64,000 nucleotides of DNA. Origin: Poseidonia sp. (GTDB lineage: Archaea; Thermoplasmatota; Poseidoniia; Poseidoniales; Poseidoniaceae). A program made the translations under genes and the position numbers. The DNA is taken from NCBI GenBank assembly GCA_030827475.1, contig JAUREJ010000003.1, forward strand, positions 6,648 through 70,647, written 5' to 3'. The notes under the pieces are model-generated. The model ran no database searches. It was not told the DNA's origin and was given only the letters and a program-made list of their open reading frames with translations. How positions within the stretch are numbered: position 1 is the stretch's first letter; the number at the start of each line of letters is the position of its first letter. Below are positions 27,891 through 49,919 of this stretch, piece by piece.

Positions 27891-28077
27891 GCGAACAACT
27901 CGGAGCGGTCGCGGAGGATTCTTGAACACACCGACAGAACCTGACGGTATCGGATGTTTTGGCGGACTTTCGCACGACGTCAAGGTGTGCGTGTATGAAC
28001 AATGTTCCATCACCCTCATAAGCAATCTGAGCAAGGTATTCTTTGAGCGAAGCGTATGCTTTGCAGCAGGCGAGAAC

Positions 28078-31000: not shown

Positions 31001-33828
31001 ATTCAGACGGAGATACCCTTCCCGACGGTTGGGAATCCAAAGGCCTCTGTTCGTGGGACCCTTCTCGTGTAGGCGTGAATCCCCTCAACGGCTCGGATGC
31101 CTTTGAAAATCCTGATGGGGACGGTTACGACATCAATCACGACGGCGTCTTGAGTCAGGATGAAGCCTTTGTGAACTATCTTGAATATCACGTTCGAACC
31201 GACCTTTTCAGTGGCAACATGACGCTCTCCGGGGAGCCTCTGCCCGCAGGCTTTAGCACTCAACTCTTCGACCGCATCGGAGAACTGGGTCAACCCGACG
31301 CCACCTTTGCAGAACGGGCATCGGGTGCCGTGACGTCCGGTCAATCCACCTTCAGCGTCGGAGCAGCCGACCCGTTGAGCTCGGACACCGACCGGGACGG
31401 CATGCCCGACGGCTGGGAAATATGGCACGCACGATGGAACCTGCTCGACGATGCATGGACGCTGAACCCCTTGGACTCCACGGACCGTTGGGACGACGCT
31501 GATAGCGACGGCATGACGAACTGGGAGGAGTACAACGCCATCTCGCCTCTCCTGAGTCAGACGGATGCAAACCGCTCATCCCCGCAATGGTTTGTGACCA
31601 CAATCGGTACAGCCTTTGCGCTTCAACAATGGCCCGGTATTCCAACGGAGGCCTCGTTCGGAGATTTCCTCACGCAAGACCAGATCAACCTCACAGGTTG
31701 GACATCCGACCCCAACAATGTTGACACCGACGGCGATGGTATGCTCGATGGCGTGGAATTGCTCTTCACCTCGTGGAACGTCTCAGCTGCGACATGGACG
31801 CTCAATCCGCTCGTTGCAGGAGACGGTAATTTTGACGGCGACGAAGACGGTCTTATCGACCGGCAAGAATTTGCCCTTGCCACCGAACAACCCGACAACG
31901 GTGTTGAACATCCAAGCGATGCGCCGTTGATGCATGTGGACGGGGATTTCCAACAACCCACGGAAAAAGCCCAGCGCGTGTTCAACATCCTCATCTCAAA
32001 GGAGACGAGAGGCAAGCGTTTGCTGAACGACTTCAACGCCTGGCAGCAGGGTGAACCCCCCAACGCCTTCATTGAGGTTGTTTTGGGAATGACCGACCCC
32101 ACCATCCCCGACACCGACGGTGACGGGATGTACGATGGATTTGAGTATTGGTTCACGTCGTGGGATTTGGACCAAAACCGTTGGTCCATCAACCCGCTCA
32201 TCGACGGTGACGTGAACTTGGATTCGGATCAAGACAGTTTTGATTGCAACGGGGACGGTGAAATCGATGGCAACGAATCCTTCTCGAATCTCAGGGAATG
32301 GGAATCCCGAACATGGGGGAAATTCCTCAACCGGAACACGGTTCCCGTTTCCATGGGCATCATCGATTTCGGCGAAGATGCGATGCTCGCCTATCAGGAA
32401 GAAATGGGATACTCTCTGATTCAAGCCCAATCAGCGCTTTACCAAGACTTTGTTGAGAAAGGTCAAGACTCCGCCGACAGAATGGCGAAGATCAACTCAT
32501 TGGAGAGCGAGAATTTCAACCGAAGTCTTCGGGGCGTTGCTGACCCAACACATCCTGATTCAGACAGTGACGGCATCCCGGATGGTTGGGAATACTGCTA
32601 CGCTATTTTCGGGATGGATGATGCCACAACTCAAAATCACTGGGCAGCCAATCCTCTCAACCCGTGGGACGTGAATTACGACGGTGACCATGACGGATGG
32701 TACGACCGAACCGCGTTTGACATTCCTGCTGTCCAAGGCACGTGGGACGAACGAACCTTTACGCCCTCCGGTGTCATGATTCAAAACGGAATTGGCGACT
32801 TGCCGTTCACGAACGCCATGGAATACGACAACCAAACACGCCCAGATCTCAACGACAGCGACGAGGACAGCCGGACCTTCATCACGGTTGTCGAGAACGG
32901 GGCGGTCGTCTCTCATGAACGGGACTACAATTACTCCGATGGTCGTGAGGTGTTCAAGTACGGCTCAAATCCAAGCGACAACGATACCGACGGTGATATG
33001 CTTCCCGATTGGTACGAATACAAGCTCGGATGGAACGAAAGCAACGACAATTTCAGTTCTTACCTCCAAATTCAGGTCGTTTGGATCGATGTCGCAACCG
33101 GTGGGCCTTGTAGCACATCGACCACATCGTGTTTGCCCCTCTCGCAAGACGGTTCAGGCGGTACCCTGAGTCGCCCTGAGATCGAGATGGCTTGGTTCAC
33201 ATTGAACCCTGCGGATCCAAACGATGCCAACGCCGACCCCGACCAAGATGGAAATTGGGATTGCTCAGGTGCTGGTTGTACGTACGAACCTTACACCAAT
33301 TTCCAGGAGTTCTACGCCATAACGCTCAATGTCTACGCTTCACCGAATGCTGTGAGGTTGAGCGGGTTGACCTACGATGGGTCACCGGTCACCGAAGGCT
33401 GGCAGTTCCGTGCTGCACTCCTCGGCCTCGGCCAGTCGAACGAGTTGGTATTGAACTACTTGAAACTGGACAAATACGCCGGTCCAGACCGTCAATACGG
33501 CTACATTGTGGACGACAAAGATACTGATTTCTTATCGGTTGATCCGAGCGACGACGTGGTGATGATGGCCGGAAACCGGACCGACCAGTGGGAGATTTAC
33601 TACGCAGGATCGCCCAACACTGCTCCTGTACGGAGCGTGGGGGAGCACGAATTCGGTTGGTATTTGCTCGATTTCGACGACGACCATTTGGCCGAAGGTT
33701 CAAACCCGATGAATTGGGATACGGACGGAGATTGGATGAACGATTGGTTCGAGGTTCGGGACGATGAAGAGGACGGTGTCCGAGGAGATTCCTCTCCCAT
33801 CCGATACGACTCCAGACAAACCAGTTAA
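28078..33828 (+). CDS. giant (1917 aa) secreted acidic protein built from many thrombospondin type-3-like Ca-binding repeats (D-x-D-x-DG-x-x-D-G-W-E) plus beta-propeller-like middle region; no C-terminal TM anchor
   Basis: Signal peptide MRRSQTTLLTTLAVVASLLFMSQF; at least 10 copies of DTDGDGMPDGWE-like motifs (e.g. nt 28495, 30336, 30733, 31387, 31726, 32110, 32563, 32986). Confidence 0.85.
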   Translation: MRRSQTTLLTTLAVVASLLFMSQFPSISNVANVHPDDTTQTPPPNTDSDGDLIPDVHETLFEGWMNWTAPDGRPVAMKGLDKDDAVDADTDRDLDGLNATEEFCWPYPANCTAPGFPRGLTGELDENNDRVYLDPRMADTDGDGMPDGFEAYMCQRMGGFDIVNLRFICPSFDPLNGSDVTLDSDNDGFDVNRDGVMSEAERYTAPEEYAHGMPSNYTTELDGLWCFATLPNGALLKNWPYISSGANATFHNLLPACTNRDVPHVGEDLWLGTDPLLDDSDRYLWDGFSIRSLYPSFGDGIPDGWEVHFGLDPLNRSNALSDPDRDGWDANRDGGVSEDLSRTFTALKLGEALSTLEEYTVHYDNGNTVYPGLKTTYVGDEEPFSTFPLIYDAEADALSVLHHDVRALDEHDDTVYVMTRYGISTVNEVDSTQSHQWLPQGVELTDGFLARSNNLPFALVMGTTAGFAVAPLLADGSLGALASWDWSLTGHLNAIAPLSGDGASLFVLGLADGGEGALIELGNAAVISETHELGIGLVSTLAEANASVTDIEHGLAGGATLSLFVGTDRGLLVVETASARDEAVGEWRFFYTQDDVDLPPNVDEVRNLPPGSTGNPAEVRTMILDGPTSSNAQVLWFGTPAGLHKLNLNDDSIDHSGLLLHPGVDGAMARETNSIRSIHPTGDEILVGSDWGLWAVAGDYASVYGLQDQTRLPGEIVAITTSVGEGNVTVYGAASPGQYANLLLMDPGANDSDADGMPDGWEVVHGLDPTDPWDALYDNDGDGLDLDQSGDMNLERLWTNLDEFRYTKLTPEGYNSTDPRVGDTDGDGLGDGAEYFGFFFEQSTLWCHYTVQLVHVCDDAAGQAANATYLAVANVDSPTDPTSEDSDGDGMPDGWEIQHRRWVGTTFSGGNNWSLDPLRAEDANWDADGDGLPNLCEYQWSVVRLMGLNGDLLADYGESPEAVASWAVADPNLIDSDGDTLPDGWESKGLCSWDPSRVGVNPLNGSDAFENPDGDGYDINHDGVLSQDEAFVNYLEYHVRTDLFSGNMTLSGEPLPAGFSTQLFDRIGELGQPDATFAERASGAVTSGQSTFSVGAADPLSSDTDRDGMPDGWEIWHARWNLLDDAWTLNPLDSTDRWDDADSDGMTNWEEYNAISPLLSQTDANRSSPQWFVTTIGTAFALQQWPGIPTEASFGDFLTQDQINLTGWTSDPNNVDTDGDGMLDGVELLFTSWNVSAATWTLNPLVAGDGNFDGDEDGLIDRQEFALATEQPDNGVEHPSDAPLMHVDGDFQQPTEKAQRVFNILISKETRGKRLLNDFNAWQQGEPPNAFIEVVLGMTDPTIPDTDGDGMYDGFEYWFTSWDLDQNRWSINPLIDGDVNLDSDQDSFDCNGDGEIDGNESFSNLREWESRTWGKFLNRNTVPVSMGIIDFGEDAMLAYQEEMGYSLIQAQSALYQDFVEKGQDSADRMAKINSLESENFNRSLRGVADPTHPDSDSDGIPDGWEYCYAIFGMDDATTQNHWAANPLNPWDVNYDGDHDGWYDRTAFDIPAVQGTWDERTFTPSGVMIQNGIGDLPFTNAMEYDNQTRPDLNDSDEDSRTFITVVENGAVVSHERDYNYSDGREVFKYGSNPSDNDTDGDMLPDWYEYKLGWNESNDNFSSYLQIQVVWIDVATGGPCSTSTTSCLPLSQDGSGGTLSRPEIEMAWFTLNPADPNDANADPDQDGNWDCSGAGCTYEPYTNFQEFYAITLNVYASPNAVRLSGLTYDGSPVTEGWQFRAALLGLGQSNELVLNYLKLDKYAGPDRQYGYIVDDKDTDFLSVDPSDDVVMMAGNRTDQWEIYYAGSPNTAPVRSVGEHEFGWYLLDFDDDHLAEGSNPMNWDTDGDWMNDWFEVRDDEEDGVRGDSSPIRYDSRQTS
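30742..30767 (+). repeat. 26-nt exact intragenic DNA repeat gacggcatgcccgacggctgggaaat encoding the DGMPDGWE Ca-binding motif (second copy at 31396..31421); part of a family of degenerate TSP3-repeat coding units
   Basis: Identical strings read at both positions. Confidence 0.8.
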
Positions 33829-33890: not shown

Positions 33891-36800
33891 ATGCAGGGCG
33901 GCGAACAGCATACACTCGGTACTCGCAGCATTTTCTTGTTGCTGGTCAGCCTCATGTTCCTCACGCCGCTTGGCCCCTTTGCCAACATGATGGTGACCGA
34001 GGCTGATGCGGCTGCGGGCACGCGTCACGTCTACGTGTTCAAAGACGGGTCAACCGAACACATCGCTCTCTACCAAGGAGCCAATCCCGACCTTGGAGCC
34101 ATGGTTGAACTTCCACGAGGTGCTTTGGTGACCGACGTCACCATGACCCTTTCCGGCGCTTCCGCCACGGGATGGTCGCAAGTCGTCGCCGATGACCGCG
34201 TCCACTGGGTTCGTGGCGCTGCGTCCGGGACGGATGATCGCAGCGGAGATTTGACCCTTGCACTCTCCAACGTCACTCGCAACTTCCTCCCGCACGGAAA
34301 CGACGCTTACATCCATCCCAATTCCGATGCGTGGTTGGACAACGGTTCCTATGCCCTCCGCCAACCGCACACTTCCAACGCAACGGAAACCCTCTTCTCC
34401 CAGCAACTGACGAAGACCTCTTCATCGTTTATGGCCCAAAGCCAAGGTGCTATTCTCAAGCATCACGATTGGTTGTTCCTTTCCACGTGGTCGTCTTCGA
34501 ATTTCCACAACGTGGTGGAGCGTCTTTACCCAAACAACGCGACCCGCGAATCGGTCATCACGCTTGAGCAGGCTTCGTGCACCTTGCCTCAGAAACACTC
34601 GTCGTCGTACTACGCCTATTACGGGTTCCGTGATTGGACCGTGACCGATGATGAACGTTTGTTTGGTATTCTCTCCGGATACCGCTACTCCTACGGTTCC
34701 ACGGCTCCTGTCAACTATCATCGCGTGATGGAAATGGACATCTCTCGTGACGACACGTGGACCTGCATTGATTCCTACGACATCTCACCGTCGGTCGGTG
34801 AATACACCGGGATTGCTTACGACCGGGACACCGGTAAGGTTTGGGTGGCGCACAACGCCATGAACCGGCTCTACGCTTACGATTTCGCTGGAGATGGAAC
34901 GTCTACTTACACCCGCAGTCAAGAATTCTACACCTACACCTCGTCCTCCAGTTCAACCTGGGAATGCGGTGGCAGCACGTCGAACAACCAGAAGCAAATG
35001 CTAAGGGGCTTGGAAGTCAACGGCTCGACCTTCTACATGCGATGCCAGAAAGACTACTACTACGACGACCGGGACCAACTTGAGGCCTGGTCGGTTTCGG
35101 GTTCTTCCTCTGCCCTCATTCCCGAGTCAACCGTCCGCCAGATTTCCCGACTTGGGTACGGCTTGCAATTTGACGGCGAGCGCTTTGTCACCGTCGACTG
35201 CGGTTATTCAACGTGGTCCGGTGCCACCCTGTACTACCGCGAGTTTGGAACGGGATGGCTCTACGAAACAACACCGTCGCCGGGAACGACCACGTGGTAC
35301 GGTGACGTGATCAAAACAGGCGACCCCGTTTTGGCTGCGAACGTTCAGACCTACTGGTCAGCAGCTTCCATCGGTGACCGCGTCGACTACTGGGTCTCTG
35401 CTGACAACGGAACACACTGGGAAGAAGTGGAATCCAACTCGACCATTCACTTTGACTACCCCGGTACTGAATTGGTGTGGAAGGCCCAACTCATCGGCTC
35501 CACTGCGGTGTCGTGGTGGGTTGACATGGATTATGCAACGGCCTATTCTTCACAAGGTGATTGGACCTCCCCATACTTCAACACCGGTACCAAGGTCGGA
35601 AAAGTCCGTCCGCAGTGGACCGCAGATGTTCCTGCTGGAGCCACGCTCACGGTCCAAGTCTCAAACGACAACGGAACCACTTGGTTGGACGCTACAAACA
35701 ACGCAGAAACGAGTTTCTCGACCGAAGCAGCCGGGAACACGCTCCGCTATGCCGTGGTGATGGGAACCAACGATGCCACCAAGACGCCCAAACTTGACCG
35801 CTTTGTTCTGGAGTATGAGGAAGGATACCCAGACCGCCCCATGCTTGATGTTGGCGGTGACGGGACGTACGATTGGGAATCCGATATTTTCCTCAACGAG
35901 TCTTCTGTGGTGGCTTCCGATGACTCGCCGGTCGGTGAAATTGTGAAGAGGGCCCCAACCCTTGTGGATGCCTTCAACGACCACATTCCCGAAAACGGGG
36001 ACGGCATGGTGACCATTCCAATTGGCGTGAAGGCAGCAAGTGCTGGCCGTGTGAAAATTTCCAACATCGACATCACCTATGCCATGCAGACACGCGCCGT
36101 GGACGCCTCCTTTGAGGGCGGCCTTGCCGCTCCGGACGGTGTGTTCAGGAACTTCATCACCCGGGTGGCTCCGGGCGACGATGTTGACCGAGTCACGAAG
36201 GCGGTGGTCGCCATCGACCACACCTACGGCGAAAACCCTTCGTTCACCTGGGAGCGAGGCGATGTTTGCTCGGTCAATTCGGACGGTGGTGGCATTGTCA
36301 TCTTTGACGCCACCAACTGCACATCAACGGTCAGTGCCAACGACGTGGTCTCCATTTGGATGCCGACAAAGGTGAACTGGAGCTGGAACGACGAATCGAG
36401 TACGGAAGCCATCATCTCGGTTGAGGACGATTTAGGCCCCTCCGTGAGCCAGTGGATGACCTCGGACATGAAACTGGTGGTTGAGAACGACATCCAACTG
36501 GACGGCCTGCGTGTCTGGGAAGAAACCGGCCGGCAACTCTACCCGATGGATTGGGTCCGTGGAGGTTTCAATCTCAGCTTCACCGGCTCCATCCACTTCC
36601 AAGACTCACAACTCATGCCTCCAGCGGGAAGTTTCTCCCTGCGCGTCATCGGCCAAAACGTGACCTATGATGGCGACCCGATGGGCGAACCCATGGTGCT
36701 CTATGAAGAGGTGAACCCGGCTTTTGGGGCCTACAACATGACCTTCACTTCACCCATTGAATCCGCTCCGGGAGGGATGATTTTCTACGTTCAAGCCGTG

Positions 36801-39338
36801 AACCTTGAAAACGGCTCAACCTTCACCAACCCCACCTACAACAGCATTCGATTGATTCTCGACGGCAATTCTCCACTCGTGCTCAGCGCTACCCCGCTCG
36901 ATGGTACTGAACGCCATGCTGGTGCTCCCGGGGTCGGTCAAGCTGTTTCCATTGTGGTCCAAGATTCGGTTGACCCGCCGCGCCAACTGAACCTTCACTA
37001 CTGGGTTGGATGCAAGGCAAGCGATGCCATCGGTTGCACGGATTACAACTTTGATGGGCTCCCCAACGAAGACGAGTACGAATTGGTCACCCTCTCCTCG
37101 CCGGAAACACGTACCGGTGGCCTCAACATCTTCGAAGGTTTGATCGACGATTCCATGCTTCTGCATCGCCAGCGAGTTTCGTTTTACGTCTCTGGCGAAG
37201 ACGAGCAAGACAACCAGATTGCGATGGGCAAAGGACCCGTTTGTCCAGTCTCGACCATCACCTGCGGCTCACGGCCGGGTGAAGTGGTTCCCGATTGGGA
37301 TGCAGATTTGGTCACCTACCACATTCGTCAAGAATTTGAACCCGAGGTCGACCTTGGCAACACCTCAATCCTTGGGCATGACGACTACGAACCCCTCCAT
37401 CCAGGCATCCCTTACACGGCGCAAATCAAGTTGAGCGACACGAATGGATGGCAGGACATTCAGTATGTTCAAGTCGCCCTTGGAGGCGATTTCGACGACG
37501 ACGAATCCTCGTTGTTCATCTCCCTTGCCGAAGGGCAAGACGGTCATCCCAAAGCGGTGATGACCCCGGGCTCGAGCAACATCGCAGTCTCCAACCTGTA
37601 TTCCACGGTTGCACTGGAGGAAGGTGACGACTCCGTAGTGGTCATTCAAGCACGCTTCCAGTTGACATGGATGTTCCCCGAATCCTTCGATACAAACGGT
37701 GTCAGTCACTTCCTCCCCCGTGTCAAAGTGACCGATATGCCTTGCAACGAGAACGAGGTAACACCTTGTTTCGAGATCATGGAAGGGATGGGCGACGATT
37801 GGTGGAGCCTAGACAACGATTTCCGCTTTGATACGGAAGCAGGACACATTCGGGCAATTGAACTTCGGAACAGCGAGAATCACTACAACGAAGAAAATTC
37901 GGAAACCATCATCGGAGCAGGTCAAGCCCTCCGTGTTTCAGGGCGGGTCTTGTTTTCAGAAGACGAAACTCCAGCCCCTCCCGGTTCCTTTGATGTCGTG
38001 TTTGGAGATTTCGAAAACAACTGGAGGACCTCGACACGGGATGACGGTGAGTTCAGTCTCGATTTGCTTGTTCCTTCTGTCCGTTCAGGCCGCTTGGACC
38101 TCCGCTTGAGCATGGATGATCTGCCCGGTTTGGCCCTTGATGAGAGCGAATTTTCGCCTCGGGTCCGCCTCGCTGTTGACAGTTCACGGCCAACCATTGA
38201 CAGCATCTCTCTCGGTGGAGTGCCCGTTGGTTCCCCGATCTCAATCGGGGCTGCTGACAACCTCGAGGTGATTCTTGTCACCAATGACGAAAACGGGTTT
38301 GACTTCGATGAATCCGCTGTCCTTCACTATCGCGTGAGGGCCGGTGAAGCAGAGATTTCTCGGGGAAGCGTTCTGCTTCCCGACATCACCAGTTTCGGCC
38401 AGGAGTACTTCTGGAGCGGCAGGTTGGATTTGACGGATTCAGGCGCAACGACGCTGCTGCCGTCCTACGCCGTTGATGTTTGGGTTTCGGGCTCGGACAA
38501 AGCCGGAAACCCCTTCGACACCCTCGACAATTCGATGATGGAACCGTTTGCCTCATGGCCGCTTGCACTGCTCGGTCCTCGCATTGATTTGCAGCACGAA
38601 GCGTCCAATCTTCAGTGGGACATTCCGTCTCCTTACGAAGGCGAAACTGCAACGTTGGTCGTTGAAACCGAGAACCTTGGCGGAAACGGCTTGGTTGAGT
38701 ACGCCCTTCAAAAATTGGTTGAGGGTGGATTCTGGTCCACCGTTCAAACCGTCAGCGTTGAAGCGACAGCTGGAGCGACCGTGACGGCTGCCCTGCCGGT
38801 GACTCCCGAGGAAAGGGCTGGGTCAACCATCGAGTACCGAGTGTTGGTCTTGGTAGACGGGGTTGAGATGGATCGTGCTATCGTCGCCTCGTTGTTCATC
38901 AAAGAAGAAACGGTTCGTGACGGAGAAGCGCTCACGCAACAGCTCTCCAGCGATGTCTTCAGCGTGACGTTGTTCGTCATCGCTTTGGCTTCCGTTTCTT
39001 TCGGAATGTACGCCCTCGTGCTTCGTCGTCGTTTGCTCGCTCCTGAAACGGAGGAAGAAATGGCGGATCAAACGGATGTGGTGGCCGAAGAGATGGCTGC
39101 AGGGAAGACAGTTCCAACGATACAGGCTCCGCCTGCTCCGCCGGCTCCGGCAGGGCAGGTGCCGCCACCGCCTCCGGGTGCGAAGGTCCCACCAGCTCCT
39201 CAACAAGCACCGGCAGCACCCGGCCCTGACCGAAGTTCCCCCCCTCCCGTACCCCCAACAGGGCTTCCTGAGGGATGGACCCAAGAACAGTGGGACTCTT
39301 ACGGTTGGAAGTACATTGATGCCCTCGCCAAGAAGTGA
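33891..39338 (+). CDS. giant (1815 aa) cell-surface protein: signal peptide, long beta-rich extracellular domain, C-terminal TM helix (VFSVTLFVIALASVSFGMYALVL+RRR) and proline-rich cytoplasmic tail (PPAPPAPAGQVPPPPPGAKVPPAP ... PEGWTQEQWDSYGW)
   Basis: Uninterrupted ORF; topology read from hydrophobic segments. Confidence 0.8.
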   Translation: MQGGEQHTLGTRSIFLLLVSLMFLTPLGPFANMMVTEADAAAGTRHVYVFKDGSTEHIALYQGANPDLGAMVELPRGALVTDVTMTLSGASATGWSQVVADDRVHWVRGAASGTDDRSGDLTLALSNVTRNFLPHGNDAYIHPNSDAWLDNGSYALRQPHTSNATETLFSQQLTKTSSSFMAQSQGAILKHHDWLFLSTWSSSNFHNVVERLYPNNATRESVITLEQASCTLPQKHSSSYYAYYGFRDWTVTDDERLFGILSGYRYSYGSTAPVNYHRVMEMDISRDDTWTCIDSYDISPSVGEYTGIAYDRDTGKVWVAHNAMNRLYAYDFAGDGTSTYTRSQEFYTYTSSSSSTWECGGSTSNNQKQMLRGLEVNGSTFYMRCQKDYYYDDRDQLEAWSVSGSSSALIPESTVRQISRLGYGLQFDGERFVTVDCGYSTWSGATLYYREFGTGWLYETTPSPGTTTWYGDVIKTGDPVLAANVQTYWSAASIGDRVDYWVSADNGTHWEEVESNSTIHFDYPGTELVWKAQLIGSTAVSWWVDMDYATAYSSQGDWTSPYFNTGTKVGKVRPQWTADVPAGATLTVQVSNDNGTTWLDATNNAETSFSTEAAGNTLRYAVVMGTNDATKTPKLDRFVLEYEEGYPDRPMLDVGGDGTYDWESDIFLNESSVVASDDSPVGEIVKRAPTLVDAFNDHIPENGDGMVTIPIGVKAASAGRVKISNIDITYAMQTRAVDASFEGGLAAPDGVFRNFITRVAPGDDVDRVTKAVVAIDHTYGENPSFTWERGDVCSVNSDGGGIVIFDATNCTSTVSANDVVSIWMPTKVNWSWNDESSTEAIISVEDDLGPSVSQWMTSDMKLVVENDIQLDGLRVWEETGRQLYPMDWVRGGFNLSFTGSIHFQDSQLMPPAGSFSLRVIGQNVTYDGDPMGEPMVLYEEVNPAFGAYNMTFTSPIESAPGGMIFYVQAVNLENGSTFTNPTYNSIRLILDGNSPLVLSATPLDGTERHAGAPGVGQAVSIVVQDSVDPPRQLNLHYWVGCKASDAIGCTDYNFDGLPNEDEYELVTLSSPETRTGGLNIFEGLIDDSMLLHRQRVSFYVSGEDEQDNQIAMGKGPVCPVSTITCGSRPGEVVPDWDADLVTYHIRQEFEPEVDLGNTSILGHDDYEPLHPGIPYTAQIKLSDTNGWQDIQYVQVALGGDFDDDESSLFISLAEGQDGHPKAVMTPGSSNIAVSNLYSTVALEEGDDSVVVIQARFQLTWMFPESFDTNGVSHFLPRVKVTDMPCNENEVTPCFEIMEGMGDDWWSLDNDFRFDTEAGHIRAIELRNSENHYNEENSETIIGAGQALRVSGRVLFSEDETPAPPGSFDVVFGDFENNWRTSTRDDGEFSLDLLVPSVRSGRLDLRLSMDDLPGLALDESEFSPRVRLAVDSSRPTIDSISLGGVPVGSPISIGAADNLEVILVTNDENGFDFDESAVLHYRVRAGEAEISRGSVLLPDITSFGQEYFWSGRLDLTDSGATTLLPSYAVDVWVSGSDKAGNPFDTLDNSMMEPFASWPLALLGPRIDLQHEASNLQWDIPSPYEGETATLVVETENLGGNGLVEYALQKLVEGGFWSTVQTVSVEATAGATVTAALPVTPEERAGSTIEYRVLVLVDGVEMDRAIVASLFIKEETVRDGEALTQQLSSDVFSVTLFVIALASVSFGMYALVLRRRLLAPETEEEMADQTDVVAEEMAAGKTVPTIQAPPAPPAPAGQVPPPPPGAKVPPAPQQAPAAPGPDRSSPPPVPPTGLPEGWTQEQWDSYGWKYIDALAKK

Positions 39339-39345
39339 GGATTGA

Positions 39346-39792
39346 TTGAACGTGGCTGACACCCCCGTTGACGGCATGGTTACGCTTCAAGAGCGTACCG
39401 TGAACTTGGTGAATCAGCTCAACATGCCTCTGGTTGAAGTGTCGCTGGTTCTTGCTCGTCATATCAATCGGCTCATGCAAACCTTGACCGAACATCTCGA
39501 TGCTACCGGCCAGTCCGTGAGCGACCGTGTCTCGCACCCATGGCCTGTGGAGGTTGAGGCGGCAGATTCTTCGTCAAATTTCCCGCTCGACAAGGTAATG
39601 GATATTGTCGACCAACAGCGAATGGACATTCTGGACACGCTGATTCGTGTCACTTTGGTTGAAATCAATGCCTCGGTCATTGACGCCTTGCTCGCGCTTC
39701 GGGCTTGGGAACATCTTGCTCGTACGCAGTTGGCGCTTGCGACCGGACCGGGACAATTGTTTTCTCCGTTGGAGATTCCAGAGGACTGGTGA
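39346..39792 (+). CDS. small acidic helical cytoplasmic protein, hypothetical; starts 8 nt after the giant gene's stop
   Basis: 148-aa ORF, no TM, compact genomic position suggests co-transcription. Confidence 0.5.
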   Translation: MNVADTPVDGMVTLQERTVNLVNQLNMPLVEVSLVLARHINRLMQTLTEHLDATGQSVSDRVSHPWPVEVEAADSSSNFPLDKVMDIVDQQRMDILDTLIRVTLVEINASVIDALLALRAWEHLARTQLALATGPGQLFSPLEIPEDW

Positions 39793-39829
39793 GCAAGGGC
39801 TTCAAAAACGAGGGCGGGGAGGTGGTGTC

Positions 39830-40618
39830 ATGACCCATGCTCGTCAAACAGCCCTGGTCCTCGTTACGCTGCTGCTGTTGGTGCCGTCCTCGGGGTGCTT
39901 GGGCGAAGATGGTTTGCGGGTTTTTCCCGAGAAGAAAGGTGTTCCAGGTGGGCTCACCTTGGCGTGTTTGCGGGATGGCTCCTTCACGTCGATGGTGATT
40001 GAGATCGATCATGCCCCCGGTTATCGACCGTACACCAGTTCAACGGACCTCTTGGTGGAGAGGTTGGAGCAAGTTTGTGAAAAACCCGGAGGTATTCGCA
40101 TTCAATACAACGAAGTCTCGTTTGTCGAACAGGCCTCATGGAGCGCCCAAGATGTTCGGGATGAAGGTTGGGAGAACAAAGACGTCTCTCCCATGGACGG
40201 GAACACGCTTCGATGGCAGATTCTTTTCCCAGAGGGGACTTACGAAGACGAGAGCGTTCTCGGCGTTGCCGTGGATGCATCGACCATGGCGCTTTTCAGC
40301 GATGCGATTGAGGAAGCCGACGGCTTGTTTGGACGCCCCTCTGTTGAAGACGTTGAAAACAGCGTCATCGTCCATGAGGCAGGGCACCTGCTCGGGCTGG
40401 TCAACCTCGTCTACACCTCTCCCGTGGACCATGAAGACCCGGATCATCCCGGTCATTCAAACAACGACGAATCCGTCATGTATTGGGCCATTGAATCCAC
40501 GGGACTGAGGAACTTCATCACGGGCGATCTACCCACGACGTTCGATGACGATGATTTGGCGGACCTTGCAGGATTGGCGAGCGGCGACATCCCTGTACGT
40601 GATCAACTCTGGCCTTGA
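39830..40618 (+). CDS. secreted zinc metalloprotease-like lipoprotein (signal + lipobox-like LVPSSGC; HEAGHLLGL zinc motif)
   Basis: HExxH with Gly at +3 after the second His; GGAGGTG Shine-Dalgarno-like sequence 5 nt upstream of the ATG at 39830. Confidence 0.65.
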   Translation: MTHARQTALVLVTLLLLVPSSGCLGEDGLRVFPEKKGVPGGLTLACLRDGSFTSMVIEIDHAPGYRPYTSSTDLLVERLEQVCEKPGGIRIQYNEVSFVEQASWSAQDVRDEGWENKDVSPMDGNTLRWQILFPEGTYEDESVLGVAVDASTMALFSDAIEEADGLFGRPSVEDVENSVIVHEAGHLLGLVNLVYTSPVDHEDPDHPGHSNNDESVMYWAIESTGLRNFITGDLPTTFDDDDLADLAGLASGDIPVRDQLWP

Positions 40619-40938: not shown

Positions 40939-41024
40939 GGCCCGTGGTCGTCGTGCTCATTTGTGAACTTGGCGCAAGGAAGCGGGGGGATTGGATGAAA
41001 AACCCCTGCCTTGATGGCCTTTCA

Positions 41025-42101
41025 ATGCCGGTCAAAACCGTTCTTGTCACGGGTTTTGAACCGTTTGGTGGTCATGCTGAGAACGTCAGTGCGGAAGTCG
41101 CAAGACGTTTGGGCGTCCTCACGGAAGTGGTGCACCCGTGGACGGGAGAACAGGTTCCAATATCGGTGACGACCGATATCTTGAGCGTTGACCGTACGGG
41201 TGCATGCAAAACAGCTGCGCGATTAAGAAACGGTGAGATGTACGATGCCGTCTTGCATCTCGGCCTTTGTGAACGATGCGAACATCCGCAAATCGAACGC
41301 CTCGCCAGGGACCGATTGGACATGCGCATTCCGGACAACATCGGGCGGCAGGTACGTGCTGGTAAGCTGGATGGTGGCGGAGATCGAGGCATATGGGTTG
41401 ACCCCTCCCTTTGGCCACGAAAAGCCTTCAACGTCCCCTATCACCTGTCAACCGACGCAGGGGCATACTTGTGCAACGAGACGTTTTTTGAATCGCTCAA
41501 AGCTCTCGGTGAATCTACGCAAAGGCCGTTGCCACCACCCTGTGTGTTTGTTCATCTCCCCGATGTTCACCGTTCACCGGTTGAAGCAAGCACGGAGTTT
41601 TCACAACAGGTGTTGACCTTCCTGCTCCATCCAACGCCAAATGTTCCCGTCCATGTTGTTGCTGGCTACCTTTCGGATGGATTGGGAAAGCACCTCGTTG
41701 CGAAACGAAGCGCGGGTGAATTGGACGCAGGAGAATGGGAATTTCCCGGAGGGAAACTTGAGGAGGGTGAATCTTGGACGGAGGCCATTGAGCGTGAACT
41801 CCGTGAAGAATTGGGTCTTGAAGTCACGGGTCGCCAACTTCTCGCCACGGTGGTGCGAGACGCTGGCAAGACCACGTATGCGGTGCATCTTGTGCGTTGC
41901 GATTGGTCCGGTGAAGTGGACCGTCTTGCCCTCGACGTCCACGATGCAGTCTCATGGGTGGACCTCACGGACAAAGGCCGCCGGTGGGCGGGGCGGGACG
42001 CTGAACTCCATTCACTGCTCTGCGACTTGACTCATAACCAGGTCGATGCGTCTCCGTCCTCGGTCATAGCCCGTTCATCGTTGATGGAGCGAGGGACTTG
42101 A
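41025..42101 (+). CDS. pcp: fusion protein: pyrrolidone-carboxylate peptidase (peptidase C15; VLVTGFEPFGG, active-site Cys context AGAYLCNE) + C-terminal NUDIX hydrolase (GGKLEEGESWTEAIERELREELGLEV)
   Basis: Both signature motifs present in one ORF; alternative starts at 40944/40995. Confidence 0.75.
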   Translation: MPVKTVLVTGFEPFGGHAENVSAEVARRLGVLTEVVHPWTGEQVPISVTTDILSVDRTGACKTAARLRNGEMYDAVLHLGLCERCEHPQIERLARDRLDMRIPDNIGRQVRAGKLDGGGDRGIWVDPSLWPRKAFNVPYHLSTDAGAYLCNETFFESLKALGESTQRPLPPPCVFVHLPDVHRSPVEASTEFSQQVLTFLLHPTPNVPVHVVAGYLSDGLGKHLVAKRSAGELDAGEWEFPGGKLEEGESWTEAIERELREELGLEVTGRQLLATVVRDAGKTTYAVHLVRCDWSGEVDRLALDVHDAVSWVDLTDKGRRWAGRDAELHSLLCDLTHNQVDASPSSVIARSSLMERGT

Positions 42102-42547
42102 CTTCGCCCGGGGTGCCAAGTTGCCGCTTGGAGCCATTCATCCAACCCGTTGCCCTCAATGGTGACGGTGAACACACCGCCAAGCGGGGCCTCGCCAGGT
42201 ATCGGGAACGCAATTTTTCCGGCGAGCGCCGCAAGTCGGGCGATGCTAAACTCGGTTTTGTCCCCTTGCATTCCTCTTGCCATGGTGTCCAAGGCCGTGT
42301 CGAGGATGCGCTGCTCGTGGAGCAACTGGAGGAAGGTTTTGAGCGAGACGTTCTCGAAAGACCAATCGAGGTTTGAGGCCTTACCAAAAACCGGTTCGGG
42401 GGTTTCTTGCGGTATTCCTGCATCGGGGAACACATTGAGGAGCGCGTTTCCCACTTGAACCGGAGAGTCAGCTCCCCGAAGTTGCGTTGAAACCAAGACG
42501 GAAAACCCCTCACCAACGCCACTTAGACGGAGTCGCTGGTCAACCAT
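42032..42547 (-). CDS. conserved-looking hypothetical protein (171 aa), convergent with a 70-nt 3' overlap on the Pcp-NUDIX gene
   Basis: Protein-like composition, while the alternative frames are low-complexity. Confidence 0.45.
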   Translation of the reverse strand: MVDQRLRLSGVGEGFSVLVSTQLRGADSPVQVGNALLNVFPDAGIPQETPEPVFGKASNLDWSFENVSLKTFLQLLHEQRILDTALDTMARGMQGDKTEFSIARLAALAGKIAFPIPGEAPLGGVFTVTIEGNGLDEWLQAATWHPGRSQVPRSINDERAMTEDGDASTWL

Positions 42548-44720: not shown

Positions 44721-45845
44721 ATGGCTGACAAACGGGACTATTACGAGGTCTTGGGCGTTGAGAAATCCGCTTCGCAAGCCGAACTCAAGAATGCCTTTCG
44801 TCGGCTCGCCCGGTTGTACCACCCGGACCGAAGCACCGAAGAGAACGCCGAAGACCGGTTCAAGGAAATTCAAGAAGCCTATGCGGTGCTTTCCGACGAT
44901 GAAAAACGCAGTCAGTACGACCGGTTTGGTCACAGCGGGCCCCAAGGAAATCCCTTCGGCGGATTTGGCGGTGGGTTCAACATCAACCTTGACGAAATTC
45001 TTGGAGGGGATTTTTTCTCCTCCTTCTTCGGTGGAAGCTCCGGTCGTCGCCCTCGGAGCCGCCGTGGTGCAGACATCTTGCTTCGTCATTCGATCAACCT
45101 CGAAGACGTGCTTAACGGAACTCAGCAGGAGGTTGTCCTTGACCTCCCAGAGCCTTGCACATCATGCGATGGAACGGGAGCAGAAGGCGGAGACCTGGTG
45201 ACGTGCTCAGCATGTTCTGGCCAAGGCCAGGTGCGTGTCCGCCAACAGGTCGGCCCATTCATTCAGGAATCCGTTCAGGCCTGCAACCCGTGCTCCGGTC
45301 GAGGTCGCGTGTCGGACCGCGCCTGCGAAGATTGCAACGGACGGGGCCAAGAACTCACGCCGAACACGCTTCGGTTTCAAGTCCCAGAGGGTGCAGAATC
45401 CGGTACACGATTGCGCATGCGAGGAAAGGGCGAACCTGCACCCCAGGGTTCGGGTGAACCCGGTGATTTGTTCATCGAGTTGGAAGTCGACCCCCATCCT
45501 TGGTTTGAGAGGAACGGTTCAGACCTCATCATGTCGCTTCCTCTTGGCTATGCTGACCTTCTTCTGGGTACGACGGTGACCTTGGACCATCTCGACGGAA
45601 AACCGCTTACAATCAAAATCCCTGCCCATTCCAATTCAGGCGAGACCGTTGAACTTCGAAAACGAGGATTGCCTCGTCAGCGCGGGACCGGACGTGGTGA
45701 TGTGGTCGTCCTGCTCAAATTGTACATGCCGAAAAAGGTCAGCAAGGCAGCGAGAAAGACGTTGGAATCGGTCCGAAGTGACCTGAGCCCGGACGACATC
45801 ACGAAGAGCATTCTCGACGATGCTTCTGAGCGTCGTCGCTCATGA
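44721..45845 (+). CDS. dnaJ: molecular chaperone DnaJ (J-domain HPD, four CxxCxGxG zinc-finger repeats)
   Basis: DYYEVLGV...YHPDR; CTSCDGTG, CSACSGQG, CNPCSGRG, CEDCNGRG. Confidence 0.9.
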   Translation: MADKRDYYEVLGVEKSASQAELKNAFRRLARLYHPDRSTEENAEDRFKEIQEAYAVLSDDEKRSQYDRFGHSGPQGNPFGGFGGGFNINLDEILGGDFFSSFFGGSSGRRPRSRRGADILLRHSINLEDVLNGTQQEVVLDLPEPCTSCDGTGAEGGDLVTCSACSGQGQVRVRQQVGPFIQESVQACNPCSGRGRVSDRACEDCNGRGQELTPNTLRFQVPEGAESGTRLRMRGKGEPAPQGSGEPGDLFIELEVDPHPWFERNGSDLIMSLPLGYADLLLGTTVTLDHLDGKPLTIKIPAHSNSGETVELRKRGLPRQRGTGRGDVVVLLKLYMPKKVSKAARKTLESVRSDLSPDDITKSILDDASERRRS

Positions 45846-48062
45846 GGTCTGACCGGTCCGTCGGACGCTTTCGGGCATTCGTGCAGCGAAGGGTTCCCCG
45901 CCGACTCGCCCGTTGAGTTCAACGTCGACGTGCTGTCCAGGTCCTTCAAGTTCAACGACCACATAAGCCCGGTGACCCTCGTGAAGTTGGTCCAAGAAAA
46001 GTTCCTCGCCTTGGTGCAAGAAGCGAGGCTCGACGTGGACGACCTCAAAGGCTCGACCTTCAGGGGCGTCAAAGCGCAGGGCAGCGAGTTCCCAAGCATC
46101 GGAGAGGATGTGAACGCCGACGACCAAGACCCAATTTCCTTCGGTTTTCGCAAGCCGAGTGTCAACCTGCCACACGGCCAAGGCGACGGATTCGGTGCGG
46201 TGTTCGAGCCGTTCCTCTCCCCAGGCATCCATGCCTTCCTGCCAGTCGAGTTGCGCGACCGCTTCCAGCACGTTTGAGAGGTCCGTTCGCGCTTCTTTCA
46301 CGCTCGTCTCACCGCTGTCAAGGCGTGCGGTGTACCATGCCAAGCGCTGTTTCTGTTCAGCAAGAACACGGGCAAACCGCTGGCTTCGCCGGAGTGTCAC
46401 GGTCAAATAGACAACGGGGAGGAGGAACAGAAAACCGAGGAACCAGCGAGCCACACCGCCCCAGAACACCGCATCGTCGCTTGGAGGAAACCACGGTTCT
46501 TCGCCCTCGTCGATCAGAGAGTATGCTGCCTGCACCGTGTAGGTGCGGGACTCGACATCTTCTCCCCAGAGATGGGGTGTGGCCTCGGAGGCGTTTTGGA
46601 AACGAAACTGGACAAAATGTGTACCTCGACCAACTTGCAGTCCGATGCTCAATGTATCGCCGACGGGTCGTGTAATGTCCGTGAGGAGAACTTCGCCGGT
46701 CTTTTGGTCAATGTCCCAGAGTTGGGCTTCCAACCCTTCCACATCTCCATCAAGGGTAAACTGGACAAAATGTATGGAGTCCAGCCAACCGTCCACCTCA
46801 AGCCGGTATGTGTCTGCAGTATCGTGAACGGCGAGGGTGAATTCACCGTTGGTGGTGCTGGTTAAGTTGAGGAGGGGCCAACTGGTGTTGTTCACTTCAA
46901 GGCTCGAGGGGCGATAAGCTGGGGCTTCCAAGCCATCCTTGTCAGCGAAGGACACGCGAAGCAGTTCGATGGAAAAGACGGAGGAGTTGAGGACATTGAG
47001 CCGACCAACGGTGGTCTCCGGGTAGGGGTGGACCGTCAAGGATTCTCCAGGACCTAAGACGGAGGGTGTGCCCTTGACCCAAGAATCGCTCATGAGCTGA
47101 TCGATTTGGACCGTCGCTCCGGAGAGTCGTGTATGGAGATGGAGCGCCTCAACATCGGGCCACGAAAAGAGCACTTCCCGGGTGTGGTGTCCGAGAACTT
47201 CCGCACCGTAGCGAAGGTCGGTATCGACAAGACTGAGTGTATCTGCAGCCGGATGAAGCATCACGTGTGCCGCCCACAACGCTCCAAGTTCCGGTGAGGA
47301 AAGGCGGGCGATGAAGCGGCCGTCCTCTTCCGCCGTCCACCATGCCGCATTGGGCGGTTGCCCGGCGAGTTCGCTGAAACCCGCATCGGCGGTGTGGATG
47401 GCGGCGTGGCTCTGCTCGGCGGTGTTGGATTGGTGGTACATCCGGACGCTGATCGCTCGGGTGGTGGCCAACCACTGCCACTCCACCGAGTCACCGGCCT
47501 GTACATCGATCACGATGTATTCGTCGTTGGTCGAATCGAGGTGGCCCGAGAGGCGGAAATCCAGATCCTGTGTGGACCCGATGCGAGATGCGAGGGTGCC
47601 TGTCTTGGCGTCCAGACAGGTTTCGACAGGATCACAGACGCCGATGGAAGCCGTGGTGGCGATTTCTCCCGGGGCTGGGCGAACGGTCGGATGCGCTTCG
47701 TCGATCGGCGCGACCACCATCATAGAGAGCGTATCTTCGGTGGAGCTGGTGACGGTGATGGTGACCTCGGTTGTGTCCGAAGCGGCGATGTTGAACGTGT
47801 TGAGTGCCCCTTCTTGGGTGGTGATGGCGTTACCTGTCACATCGACCGTACAAGCATCGCAATCCCAAGCCAGGAGGGCAAGTTCTCCAGCGTTCAAGGG
47901 AATGCGGCGTTCGTGAGGTGCCTCCGGGGAGATGTTCACCACGGTGATGCGACCGGGATCTTCAGTCGATGATTGAGCCAACGCATTGGTCATTGGATGA
48001 AAGCAAAAGGAAAGGAACAACAGGAGCAATGAGGTTCGCGCAACACCTGAAGTCCACCCCAT
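45840..48062 (-). CDS. single-pass surface protein: signal peptide, about 500-aa extracellular domain, TM helix (FLGFLFLLPVVYLTVTL+RRSQR), about 190-aa cytoplasmic domain
   Basis: Topology from hydrophobic segments. Confidence 0.6.
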   Translation of the reverse strand: MGWTSGVARTSLLLLFLSFCFHPMTNALAQSSTEDPGRITVVNISPEAPHERRIPLNAGELALLAWDCDACTVDVTGNAITTQEGALNTFNIAASDTTEVTITVTSSTEDTLSMMVVAPIDEAHPTVRPAPGEIATTASIGVCDPVETCLDAKTGTLASRIGSTQDLDFRLSGHLDSTNDEYIVIDVQAGDSVEWQWLATTRAISVRMYHQSNTAEQSHAAIHTADAGFSELAGQPPNAAWWTAEEDGRFIARLSSPELGALWAAHVMLHPAADTLSLVDTDLRYGAEVLGHHTREVLFSWPDVEALHLHTRLSGATVQIDQLMSDSWVKGTPSVLGPGESLTVHPYPETTVGRLNVLNSSVFSIELLRVSFADKDGLEAPAYRPSSLEVNNTSWPLLNLTSTTNGEFTLAVHDTADTYRLEVDGWLDSIHFVQFTLDGDVEGLEAQLWDIDQKTGEVLLTDITRPVGDTLSIGLQVGRGTHFVQFRFQNASEATPHLWGEDVESRTYTVQAAYSLIDEGEEPWFPPSDDAVFWGGVARWFLGFLFLLPVVYLTVTLRRSQRFARVLAEQKQRLAWYTARLDSGETSVKEARTDLSNVLEAVAQLDWQEGMDAWGEERLEHRTESVALAVWQVDTRLAKTEGNWVLVVGVHILSDAWELAALRFDAPEGRAFEVVHVEPRFLHQGEELFLDQLHEGHRAYVVVELEGPGQHVDVELNGRVGGEPFAARMPESVRRTGQTS

Positions 48063-48146: not shown

Positions 48147-49919
48147 ATGGCGGATGTCTTGGGGCGCACGGTTTTGTCCCGACACCGCTACGCTCGAGTT
48201 TGGGGTTTGGGTGACCGGAAACAACCAAGTTCTCAAACGCCGGGTGTCGTGCTTCTTGAGGGCGACCCGTCGTTGCCGTTGAATTACGCTCCGTTTGAAT
48301 CCACCACCACCGCAACGCTTCCAGCGACCCTCGACCTCCATGCACGGGGCCCGTTTTCGCCTCCTCATTTCACAGAGATTCAGCCCCATTACAGCGTTTC
48401 GATCGGTCACGTCTTGCCCCCCTCCCTTGAAGATGCAAACGCAGGTGAACCTCAGGGCACCAGCGAACTCTTGCCTGTCTCCTGGCAGCGTATGCACCAC
48501 GACGCATCGCTCATTGACGCCACCCTCTCCCCCGAAATTGTGGTCTTGACCGATGCGATCCAACTCGCCAGTCAGCCGGGGAAACTCCCTTCTGCGATCA
48601 TCGCCCTCAAACACCGGTTCCCAGGAGCGCTGCTGTGGGCTCCTGGTCTTGGCGGTCCGGACAACCTTGCTGCTCTTGTTCACATGGGTGTCGATTTGGT
48701 TGACCTTGCCCGTTGTCACCAAGCGGTGGCTCTCGGCATGGTCCTCACCCAAAACGGGCCTCGTCCACCGCTCGCTCACGAAGACACGAACCTTGAGACT
48801 CAAGCCTACCACATGATGAAGGCCATCGATGAAGTTCGCTCTTCCGTCATCAACGGGAGCATCCAAACGCTGGCGGTCCGCTCGTCGTTGTCCAGCCCAC
48901 GCTTGGTTGAGCACCTTCGCAAACACCAGGCACAAAGCTCAGTCCAACCCGGCTTGCTTTCCTCACATGTTGACGCATCGGACGTTCTGGAGTGTTTCTC
49001 GCCCCACATGCTCGACGACCCGGTGGTCATCGACTGGGAACGTTTCATCACAGAGGCGTACACGCCGCCAAATCCGGTTCGTGAGGTGATGATTTTTCTG
49101 CCATGTTCGGCAAGGAAGCCGTATCGCCTCTCCAAATCCCATACCCAGTTTTTGCGAGCCATCCAATCCACGGGTTGTCACGAGGTGATGATGACCTCAC
49201 CGCTTGGTCTCGTCCCTCGCGACTTGGAAGATGTTTGGCCCGCAGCAAATTACGATGTTCCGGTGACCGGGGACTGGTCCAAGGATGAACTTGACAGGGT
49301 ACGACGCATGCTGTCTGCCCTGGTCAAGAAAGGCGGTTACAAACGCATCATCAACCACACAGGGATGGAATTGGATTTCTTGGACATTGACGTGGTTGAC
49401 ACCCGGAACGGTGACGGAGCCACGCATCACGATGCGCTGCAACGTCTCACCTCCGCTGTCAAGGACGCGGTCCAGATGTTTGAACTTCGCAACCAAAAAA
49501 ACAGTTACCGCTTGCTTGAACACTTCAAAAGTATCGCTCGGAAAACCACGGGGACGGATGCATGGCTTGAGGGGGTGAAGGTCAAAGGCAAACTCCCACG
49601 GTGGAAACTTGAGAAAGACGGGGTTCAACTCGCCGTTTGGTCGATTGACCGCAACGGGTTCTCGTTCTCGCGCGCATCCATCGATGTTCTCCATGAACAC
49701 GGTGCGCTCAAAGAAGTGCATCTTCACTCGGACGTGAAATGGAAGGGGGACGTTTTTTTCCAACATGTTTCATCTTTTGACGCTGAAATCCGCTCGGGTG
49801 ATGATGTTCGAGTGCTGCAAAACGGTGAATGCATTGGCCTTGCAAGGTCACTCGCACCGGGTTGGGAATGGTCGGGGACGCCGGGGATGCTGGCCAAGGC
49901 CCATCAACGGAAGAAATAA
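48147..49919 (+). CDS. arcS: archaeosine synthase ArcS (TGT-like N-domain, PC-x3-KPY-x2-S-x2-H motif LPCSARKPYRLSKSH, C-terminal PUA)
   Basis: Signature motif and domain order read directly. Confidence 0.8.
   Translation: MADVLGRTVLSRHRYARVWGLGDRKQPSSQTPGVVLLEGDPSLPLNYAPFESTTTATLPATLDLHARGPFSPPHFTEIQPHYSVSIGHVLPPSLEDANAGEPQGTSELLPVSWQRMHHDASLIDATLSPEIVVLTDAIQLASQPGKLPSAIIALKHRFPGALLWAPGLGGPDNLAALVHMGVDLVDLARCHQAVALGMVLTQNGPRPPLAHEDTNLETQAYHMMKAIDEVRSSVINGSIQTLAVRSSLSSPRLVEHLRKHQAQSSVQPGLLSSHVDASDVLECFSPHMLDDPVVIDWERFITEAYTPPNPVREVMIFLPCSARKPYRLSKSHTQFLRAIQSTGCHEVMMTSPLGLVPRDLEDVWPAANYDVPVTGDWSKDELDRVRRMLSALVKKGGYKRIINHTGMELDFLDIDVVDTRNGDGATHHDALQRLTSAVKDAVQMFELRNQKNSYRLLEHFKSIARKTTGTDAWLEGVKVKGKLPRWKLEKDGVQLAVWSIDRNGFSFSRASIDVLHEHGALKEVHLHSDVKWKGDVFFQHVSSFDAEIRSGDDVRVLQNGECIGLARSLAPGWEWSGTPGMLAKAHQRKK

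Follow-up and report, generated by a model that had tools for sequence, protein, structure and literature searches.

The 64,000-nucleotide stretch of Poseidonia sp. DNA analysed here (contig JAUREJ010000003.1; hereafter the window) encodes a pyroglutamyl-peptidase I (Pcp; MEROPS family C15) fused to a NUDIX hydrolase. The fusion gene is one unbroken open reading frame (ORF) at positions 41025-42101 of the plus strand, specifying 358 amino acids (aa) and a stop, and we read its product, with a probability of roughly 0.6, as a cytosolic bifunctional clean-up hydrolase with two independent active sites. The N-terminal pyroglutamyl-peptidase I, with a Glu-Cys-His triad, would strip N-terminal pyroglutamate (pGlu) from peptides, while the C-terminal MutT/NudG-type NUDIX domain, which would be Mg2+-dependent, would hydrolyse a (deoxy)nucleoside triphosphate, (d)NTP, or a close derivative. 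Both sites are predicted to be catalytically competent and to act on separate substrates, and the fusion would most likely have been kept because it lets a streamlined genome express together, and stabilise, two clean-up functions of the housekeeping kind.

An earlier note, made from the letters of the DNA alone, had reported the C15 motifs and a complete NUDIX box within a single ORF, and both its coordinates and its description proved correct. The two Pfam domains match one and the same 358-aa product above their gathering thresholds: PF01470 (Peptidase_C15) covers aa 5-182 with 53.9 bits (gathering cutoff 22.7; E 3e-14) and PF00293 (NUDIX) covers aa 212-316 with 60.1 bits (gathering cutoff 21.1; E 3e-16). 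The DNA reads through the domain junction, at about nucleotides (nt) 41600-41660, with neither a stop nor a frameshift, which includes the position near nt 41650 where the earlier note had wanted the frame checked. The fusion gene was the sole match when a hidden Markov model (HMM) of the family was run against all six-frame ORFs, so the 64-kb window has no further copy of either Pcp or NUDIX. The gene and its parts are as follows.

41025..42101, plus strand: fusion gene, 358 aa plus stop (ORF; both Pfam domains; full-length orthologues; 358-aa NCBI call of an 82%-identical orthologue)
41037..41627, plus strand: pyroglutamyl-peptidase I (C15) domain, Pfam aa 5-182, with the fold reaching the C-terminal helix at aa 186-201 (sequence and Foldseek)
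41295..41297, plus strand: codon GAA of catalytic Glu91 in the motif IERLA (aligned to the ERV/ERI Glu of 6ltq, 1iu8, 1iof and 2ebj)
41472..41474, plus strand: codon TGC of catalytic Cys150 in the motif AGAYLCNE (aligned to the nucleophile Cys of solved Pcp structures)
41553..41555, plus strand: codon CAT of catalytic His177 in the motif FVHLP (aligned to the FVHLP/FIHVP His of solved Pcp structures)
41628..41648, plus strand: inter-domain linker HPTPNVP, aa 202-208, 7 residues (secondary structure of the model; conserved His177-Trp238 spacing)
41649..42035, plus strand: MutT/NudG-like NUDIX hydrolase domain, aa 209-337, Pfam aa 212-316 (sequence and Foldseek)
41751..41819, plus strand: Nudix box GKLEEGESWTEAIERELREELGL, aa 243-265 (sequence; core conserved 62/62)

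Conservation was counted in an alignment of 62 orthologues that reaches down to 30% identity. The Pcp triad aligns residue by residue with the catalytic residues of the solved structures 6ltq, 1iu8, 1iof and 2ebj; no sequence lacks Glu91 or His177 (62/62), and only one, with Ser, lacks Cys150 (61/62). The hydrophobic pGlu pocket, which we take to consist of Phe10, Phe13 and Phe142 in the Bacillus amyloliquefaciens numbering, is likewise retained, with Phe11 and Phe14 in 62/62 and either Tyr or Phe at position 148 in 62/62. In the C-terminal half, the Nudix box is an exact fit to GX5EX7REUXEEXGU, and each of its core residues (G243, E249, R257, E258, E261, and E262) is found in 62/62. Between His177 and Trp238, every one of the 62 aligned orthologues has 53-61 residues.

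The AlphaFold2 model, built from the 62-orthologue alignment, has a mean predicted local distance difference test score (pLDDT) of 92.7 and a predicted template modelling score (pTM) of 0.90; the five models are similar, and disorder (pLDDT <50) is limited to the last 19 residues. The N-terminal half adopts the Pcp alpha/beta fold and the C-terminal half the Nudix alpha/beta/alpha sandwich in this model. A Foldseek search against the PDB matched the N-terminal lobe to more than 30 Pcp chains, with target-normalised template modelling (TM) scores of 0.73-0.81 and E values of 1e-14 to 1e-11, and the C-terminal lobe to BdRppH, Mycobacterium smegmatis MutT2 and Escherichia coli NudG/Orf135 (target-normalised TM 0.76-0.87), as well as to 3gwy, a putative CTP pyrophosphohydrolase from Bacteroides fragilis. 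No solved structure covering both lobes was among the Foldseek matches in the PDB. The top matches of the family profile are Pcp 6ltq (4e-34), MutT 5x1x (2e-29) and NudG 2rrk (4e-28).

The N-terminal half shares with the known pyroglutamyl-peptidases I (Pyrococcus furiosus 1iof, Thermococcus litoralis 1a2z, B. amyloliquefaciens 1aug, and Fervidobacterium 6ltq) not only the fold but also the Glu-Cys-His triad set in the motifs GFEPFG, ERxA, PDNxG, AGxYxCN and FxHxP, and the protein is, like them, cytosolic and without a signal peptide. It differs from these stand-alone enzymes of about 210 aa in continuing into a C-terminal NUDIX domain, in having an invariant Arg108 and Glu152 across the family, in its low identity to them (just 21-30%), and in scores that lie far below the NCBIfam equivalog cutoffs. 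The C-terminal half resembles MutT/NudG(Orf135)/MutT2-type enzymes (2rrk, 5zrc, 5x1x, and 3ees) in its complete Nudix box, in a WEFPGGK motif before the box, and in its fold (TM 0.76-0.87 at 29-35% identity); unlike MutT, NudG and RppH, it falls below their NCBIfam equivalog cutoffs and is joined to a peptidase.

The equivalog scores set the limit of the functional assignment. Against TIGR00504, PRK13194 and other Pcp equivalogs, the Pcp half scores 55-58 bits where cutoffs are 200-308 (57.8 vs 274 in one case), while the NUDIX half scores 49.9 vs 97.9 and 49.5 vs 148 against the MutT equivalogs TIGR00586 and PRK10776, respectively, and 55.9 vs 156 against the NudG equivalog PRK10546. Because all of these NCBIfam scores lie well below the cutoffs, both halves are divergent subfamily members, for which the same function as the characterised Pcp and the exact substrates are predicted from sequence; the match to NudG 2rrk is to be taken as a resemblance only, the equivalog cutoff not being reached.

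The fusion is widespread. The PF01470+PF00293 architecture occurs in more than 110 clusters at 90% identity in a large protein database drawn from NCBI, JGI, ENA and Logan assemblies, with identities down to about 30%, and when 1.84 billion representatives at 50% identity were scanned exhaustively with HMMER, about 50 clusters aligned over both domains in one stretch. Among the matches listed, all taxon-named fusion members are Poseidonia sp., Candidatus Poseidoniales, or metagenome-assembled genomes (MAGs) labelled Euryarchaeota, Methanobacteriota or Thermoplasmatota. Taxonomy was taken from cluster names and synteny, and a genome scan with the generic pattern WE[FY]PGGKxE gave only L001, L002 and the NUDIX-only locus L021 as informative among the matches listed. 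The same gene neighbourhood was found at 11/11 archaeal loci examined (L001, L002, L021, L081-L086, L089, and L090), whose GC contents range from 37 to 63%. Ahead of the fusion gene come genes for a giant protein (about 1800 aa), for a lipoprotein (about 260 aa; with an HEXXH motif in the window and close relatives) and, on the minus strand, for a membrane protein (about 110 aa); after it come genes for a convergent protein of about 171 aa, a family-2 glycosyltransferase, a zinc-ribbon protein and DnaJ. Because this neighbourhood is conserved at all eleven loci, the fusion is one orthologous gene, vertically inherited in Poseidoniales (Marine Group II archaea). Judged by the nearest relatives, the genome of the window is Poseidonia-like.

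At the same locus, each half is also found without the other. In L086, the syntenic gene ends right after the Pcp C-terminal helix, giving a protein of 207 aa with an intact triad, and the 36-sequence cluster of this protein includes a member annotated as Ca. Thalassarchaeum sp. The 207-aa protein is most closely related to fusions (60% identity to P0116 along the full length) and nests among them in a neighbour-joining (NJ) tree; as the NJ trees have no support values, they were used only jointly with pairwise identities. Because of these two observations, L086 indicates that the NUDIX half was lost secondarily. The syntenic gene of L021 encodes a 140-aa stand-alone NUDIX protein with an intact box, whose best matches beyond its own cluster are the NUDIX halves of fusions (40% identity), and two extra membrane-protein genes occupy the place of the Pcp half. 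Each half can thus persist, and presumably function, alone. Nothing else in the data speaks as strongly as this separability at one locus against an obligatory link between the two activities, or against a NUDIX domain with no more than a regulatory role.

In some Poseidoniales loci, the small membrane-protein gene is separated from the Pcp/NUDIX gene by one or two additional genes on the minus strand (about 185-222 aa): L021 (2687-3940), L086 (2277-2828) and L089 (5399-5956). All three states (fusion, Pcp-only, and NUDIX-only) are represented in this subset, and the two extra genes of L021 look like membrane proteins.

One alternative is that the NUDIX half is an RNA 5'-end pyrophosphohydrolase or decapping enzyme of the RppH/BdRppH kind instead of a sanitiser of the nucleotide pool, tying RNA turnover to peptide turnover, which we regard as unlikely. 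BdRppH is among the best structural matches of the NUDIX half (TM 0.84-0.87, 31% identity) and, as 3ees, its top sequence match, and there are weak matches to NCBIfam RNA pyrophosphohydrolase models. However, the scores against the RppH equivalog (PRK00714 models) are 21-26 bits, far under the cutoffs of 116-259 and under the 50-75 bits of MutT/NudG-type models, and the family profile places MutT (5x1x) and NudG (2rrk) above BdRppH. Moreover, BdRppH entries with GTP and dGTP exist (titles of 3ffu and 3ef5).

A second alternative is functional coupling, either through rigid packing around one composite or sequential substrate, such as a nucleotide-linked pGlu/peptide conjugate, or through NUDIX nucleotide binding that gates the peptidase allosterically. 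We consider such coupling rather improbable, and to our knowledge no nucleotide-linked pGlu/peptide conjugate has been described as a substrate. In a related form, the protein would be a fixed two-lobed enzyme whose pairing is itself selected, with a composite substrate or with one site regulating the other; this form seems to us quite improbable. Three observations favour it: the length of the linker is conserved, the inter-domain geometry is predicted with confidence, and the fusion recurs in an unrelated lineage that appears to be bacterial.

The recurrence comes from P0265 (locus L087, a 170-kb contig) and P0311 (L088), which are Pcp-NUDIX fusions with the same N-to-C order; the identity of P0265 to the window protein is 28%, and P0265 is essentially a singleton in a set of 5.8 billion proteins. 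The gene context of both loci is bacterial-looking, with PilZ, cyclic nucleotide monophosphate (cNMP)-binding proteins, SBP_bac_5 and an AI-2E transporter. Both halves of P0265 branch with stand-alone outgroups in the NJ trees, which carry no support values, and this placement suggests an independent fusion. In both loci (L087 6001-7540 and L088 72-1660), the fusion is followed by a cNMP-binding-domain protein of about 180 aa, and the two make up a conserved pair. Five other candidates (P0261, P0282, P0297, P0320, and P0324) were rejected as further Pcp-NUDIX fusions, being tandem NUDIX-NUDIX proteins.

Several points have to be set against two sites that simply work side by side. The same domain order in the rare bacterial-looking lineage, where the fusion is probably independent, hints that the pairing itself is selected. 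The pTM of 0.90 across a 7-residue linker, in five similar models, together with the tightly kept inter-domain spacing, suggests a fixed interface that could exceed mere co-expression. Four family-specific invariant residues, Arg108, Glu152, His306 and Asp325, fall outside the known catalytic sets. Finally, both activities are predicted ones for every member of the family, and with scores far under every equivalog cutoff the exact substrates are only predicted.

Against coupling, Pcp-only and NUDIX-only derivatives with intact catalytic residues survive at the same locus, and the NUDIX module is a promiscuous fusion partner. In the 5.8-billion-protein set, the same MutT/NUDIX_4-type module is fused to a MutY HhH-GPD domain, a ThiE-like TMP-TENI domain, GNAT, DUF309, NAD kinase and Vsr, and because it is joined to so many unrelated enzymes, it behaves as a portable, self-sufficient unit. 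The window protein is in this respect like the bifunctional NUDIX fusions already known (GNAT/(d)NTP pyrophosphohydrolase, PRK08999 Nudix-ThiE-like, and MutY-NUDIX_4), which also place a portable module on an unrelated enzyme; the GNAT N-acetyltransferase/(d)NTP pyrophosphohydrolase fusion is already labelled 'bifunctional' by NCBI. In most of the other fusions listed, the NUDIX domain is likewise C-terminal and the partner handles DNA, thiamine or acetyl-CoA, whereas here the partner is a cysteine peptidase. The suggestion of the earlier note that the fusion couples pyroglutamate removal with nucleotide-derivative hydrolysis is accordingly left unsupported, the intact separate forms having weakened the case for an obligatory link.

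Pcp domains also occur elsewhere in fusion to dephospho-CoA kinase (CoaE), in fusion to DUF309 and in tandem (among P0263, P0331, P0346, and P0535). P0535 joins DUF309 to a MutT-type NUDIX, so that DUF309 is a partner of either half separately.

That one half is catalytically dead, with a regulatory or scaffolding role, is very improbable: nothing but the low equivalog scores favours it, and the 62 sequences show little or no variation at the catalytic residues of either half. The proposal in the earlier note that the NUDIX module may be regulatory is unlikely for the same reason, every catalytic residue of the box being conserved in 62/62.

That a sequencing or assembly error joined two adjacent genes, which the earlier note had named as a way for the fusion to fail, has a negligible chance of being right and is not the case by the evidence of the continuous ORF in more than 110 independent clusters from four sources of assemblies; the split of the gene at the junction in the related assembly L081 (GCA_038142585.1), which might seem to favour it, is due to one inserted G relative to the window and so breaks a fused gene, the opposite direction. 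A natural two-gene state in L081 was accordingly rejected, on the nucleotide alignment with the window. The inserted G in L081 (6296-6440) leaves a Pcp ORF of 258 aa and a 'NUDIX' call of 285 aa, and probably reflects an assembly indel or a gene that has recently become a pseudogene. In L082, a 2.0-Mb ENA contig from polished long reads, the fusion is split into 303 and 72 aa (6001-7091) and DnaJ into 250 and 103 aa (9754-10874), which suggests residual indel errors.

The range of 359-385 aa given for the protein in the earlier note reflects uncertainty over the start codon. The longest frame on the plus strand is a 385-codon ORF that begins with GTG 40944 and is closed by the stop at 42099-42101 (40944..42101), but ATG 41025 is the likely start, giving the 358-aa product. 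We favour it because the NCBI pipeline called the 82%-identical Poseidonia orthologue MFZ9047177.1 at 358 aa, because the 27-residue extension from GTG 40944 is not conserved beyond the closest relatives, and because ATG 40995 sits within a conserved A/T-rich DNA element that lacks an ATG in other lineages. GTG 40944 was thus rejected since the N-terminal extension is not conserved as protein, and ATG 40995 since the surrounding element is conserved without an ATG in L001 and L002. The element GGATGAAAAACC recurs at equal distance in L081, in L002 as gTATCAAAAACC and in L001 as gTATCAATAAC. It is probably the archaeal TATA box of a leaderless mRNA, and, as a putative TATA box at -32..-21, it supports a start at 41025. 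The features at the two ends of the gene are as follows.

40993..41004, plus strand: A/T-rich element GGATGAAAAACC, -32..-21 (same position in L081, L002, and L001)
42042..42098, plus strand: disordered, clade-specific C-terminal tail, aa 340-358 (pLDDT <50; restricted to the subclade of the window)
42032..42547, minus strand: conserved convergent neighbour of 171 aa (70-nt overlap with the 3' end of the fusion gene)

The fusion gene shares the 70 nt at its 3' end (window 42032-42101) with the 3' end of the convergent 171-aa gene. On the antisense strand, the DNA of the fusion tail (THNQVDASPSSVIARSSLMERGT) encodes the conserved C-terminus of the neighbour (..RSINDERAMTEDGDASTWL), and the conservation of the tail may be imposed by the opposite strand. 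The tail is confined to the subclade of the window; other clades end about 20 aa earlier, with overlaps of 4-39 nt. The L083 orthologue of the convergent neighbour has a weak PF01877 match.

Directly upstream of the fusion locus lie two giant ORFs (27847-33828, 1993 aa, and 33891-39338, 1815 aa). The 1815-aa ORF has no Pfam match; it is conserved at 33-93% identity in L001, L002, L081, L082, L084 and L086, whereas in L021 weak conservation extends over 92 aa (39% identity). The conserved upstream neighbour at window 39647-40618 contains a zinc-metalloprotease motif, HEAGHLLGL, and a lipobox-like LVPSSGC after an internal Met; its orthologues are called at about 260 aa, and it has no Pfam match. 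Further downstream, a 740-aa ORF with no Pfam match (45840-48062, minus strand) adjoins a 590-aa DUF5591 protein (48147-49919, plus strand), and both are conserved in related loci. The tRNA and Rfam scans of the window gave no matches.

Full-text literature searches found no published description of a Pcp-NUDIX fusion, the one match being an unrelated proteomics paper; the earlier note likewise knew of none. The domain pair is nevertheless common in archaeal MAGs, an outcome that the earlier note had itself named as refuting, its Pfam architecture is precomputed in public data, and JGI already uses the two-part name 'pyrrolidone-carboxylate peptidase/8-oxo-dGTP pyrophosphatase MutT (NUDIX family)', so the fusion is unremarked rather than unknown. 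NCBI names these proteins only 'NUDIX domain-containing protein', missing the peptidase half, and the finding is for the rest mainly an improvement in annotation. The fusion does not amount to a new system: it is an unpublished variant within a known kind, in which a MutT-type NUDIX is joined to some other enzyme, and it is conserved across an archaeal order of ecological importance.

The physiological role of prokaryotic pyroglutamyl peptidases has long been unclear. If the pairing of the two domains is itself selected, with a composite substrate or with one site regulating the other, the fusion would represent a new bifunctional enzyme class and give a first physiological clue to that role. 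The occurrence of fused, Pcp-only and NUDIX-only states at one locus provides a natural experiment on the effect of fusion on either activity. Proteins and peptides are the main food of Poseidoniales, which rank among the most abundant archaea in surface ocean waters, and the order-wide fusion suggests, as a 'Rosetta-stone' hint, a co-regulated clean-up in which pyroglutamyl peptides would be unblocked and nucleotide pools sanitised.

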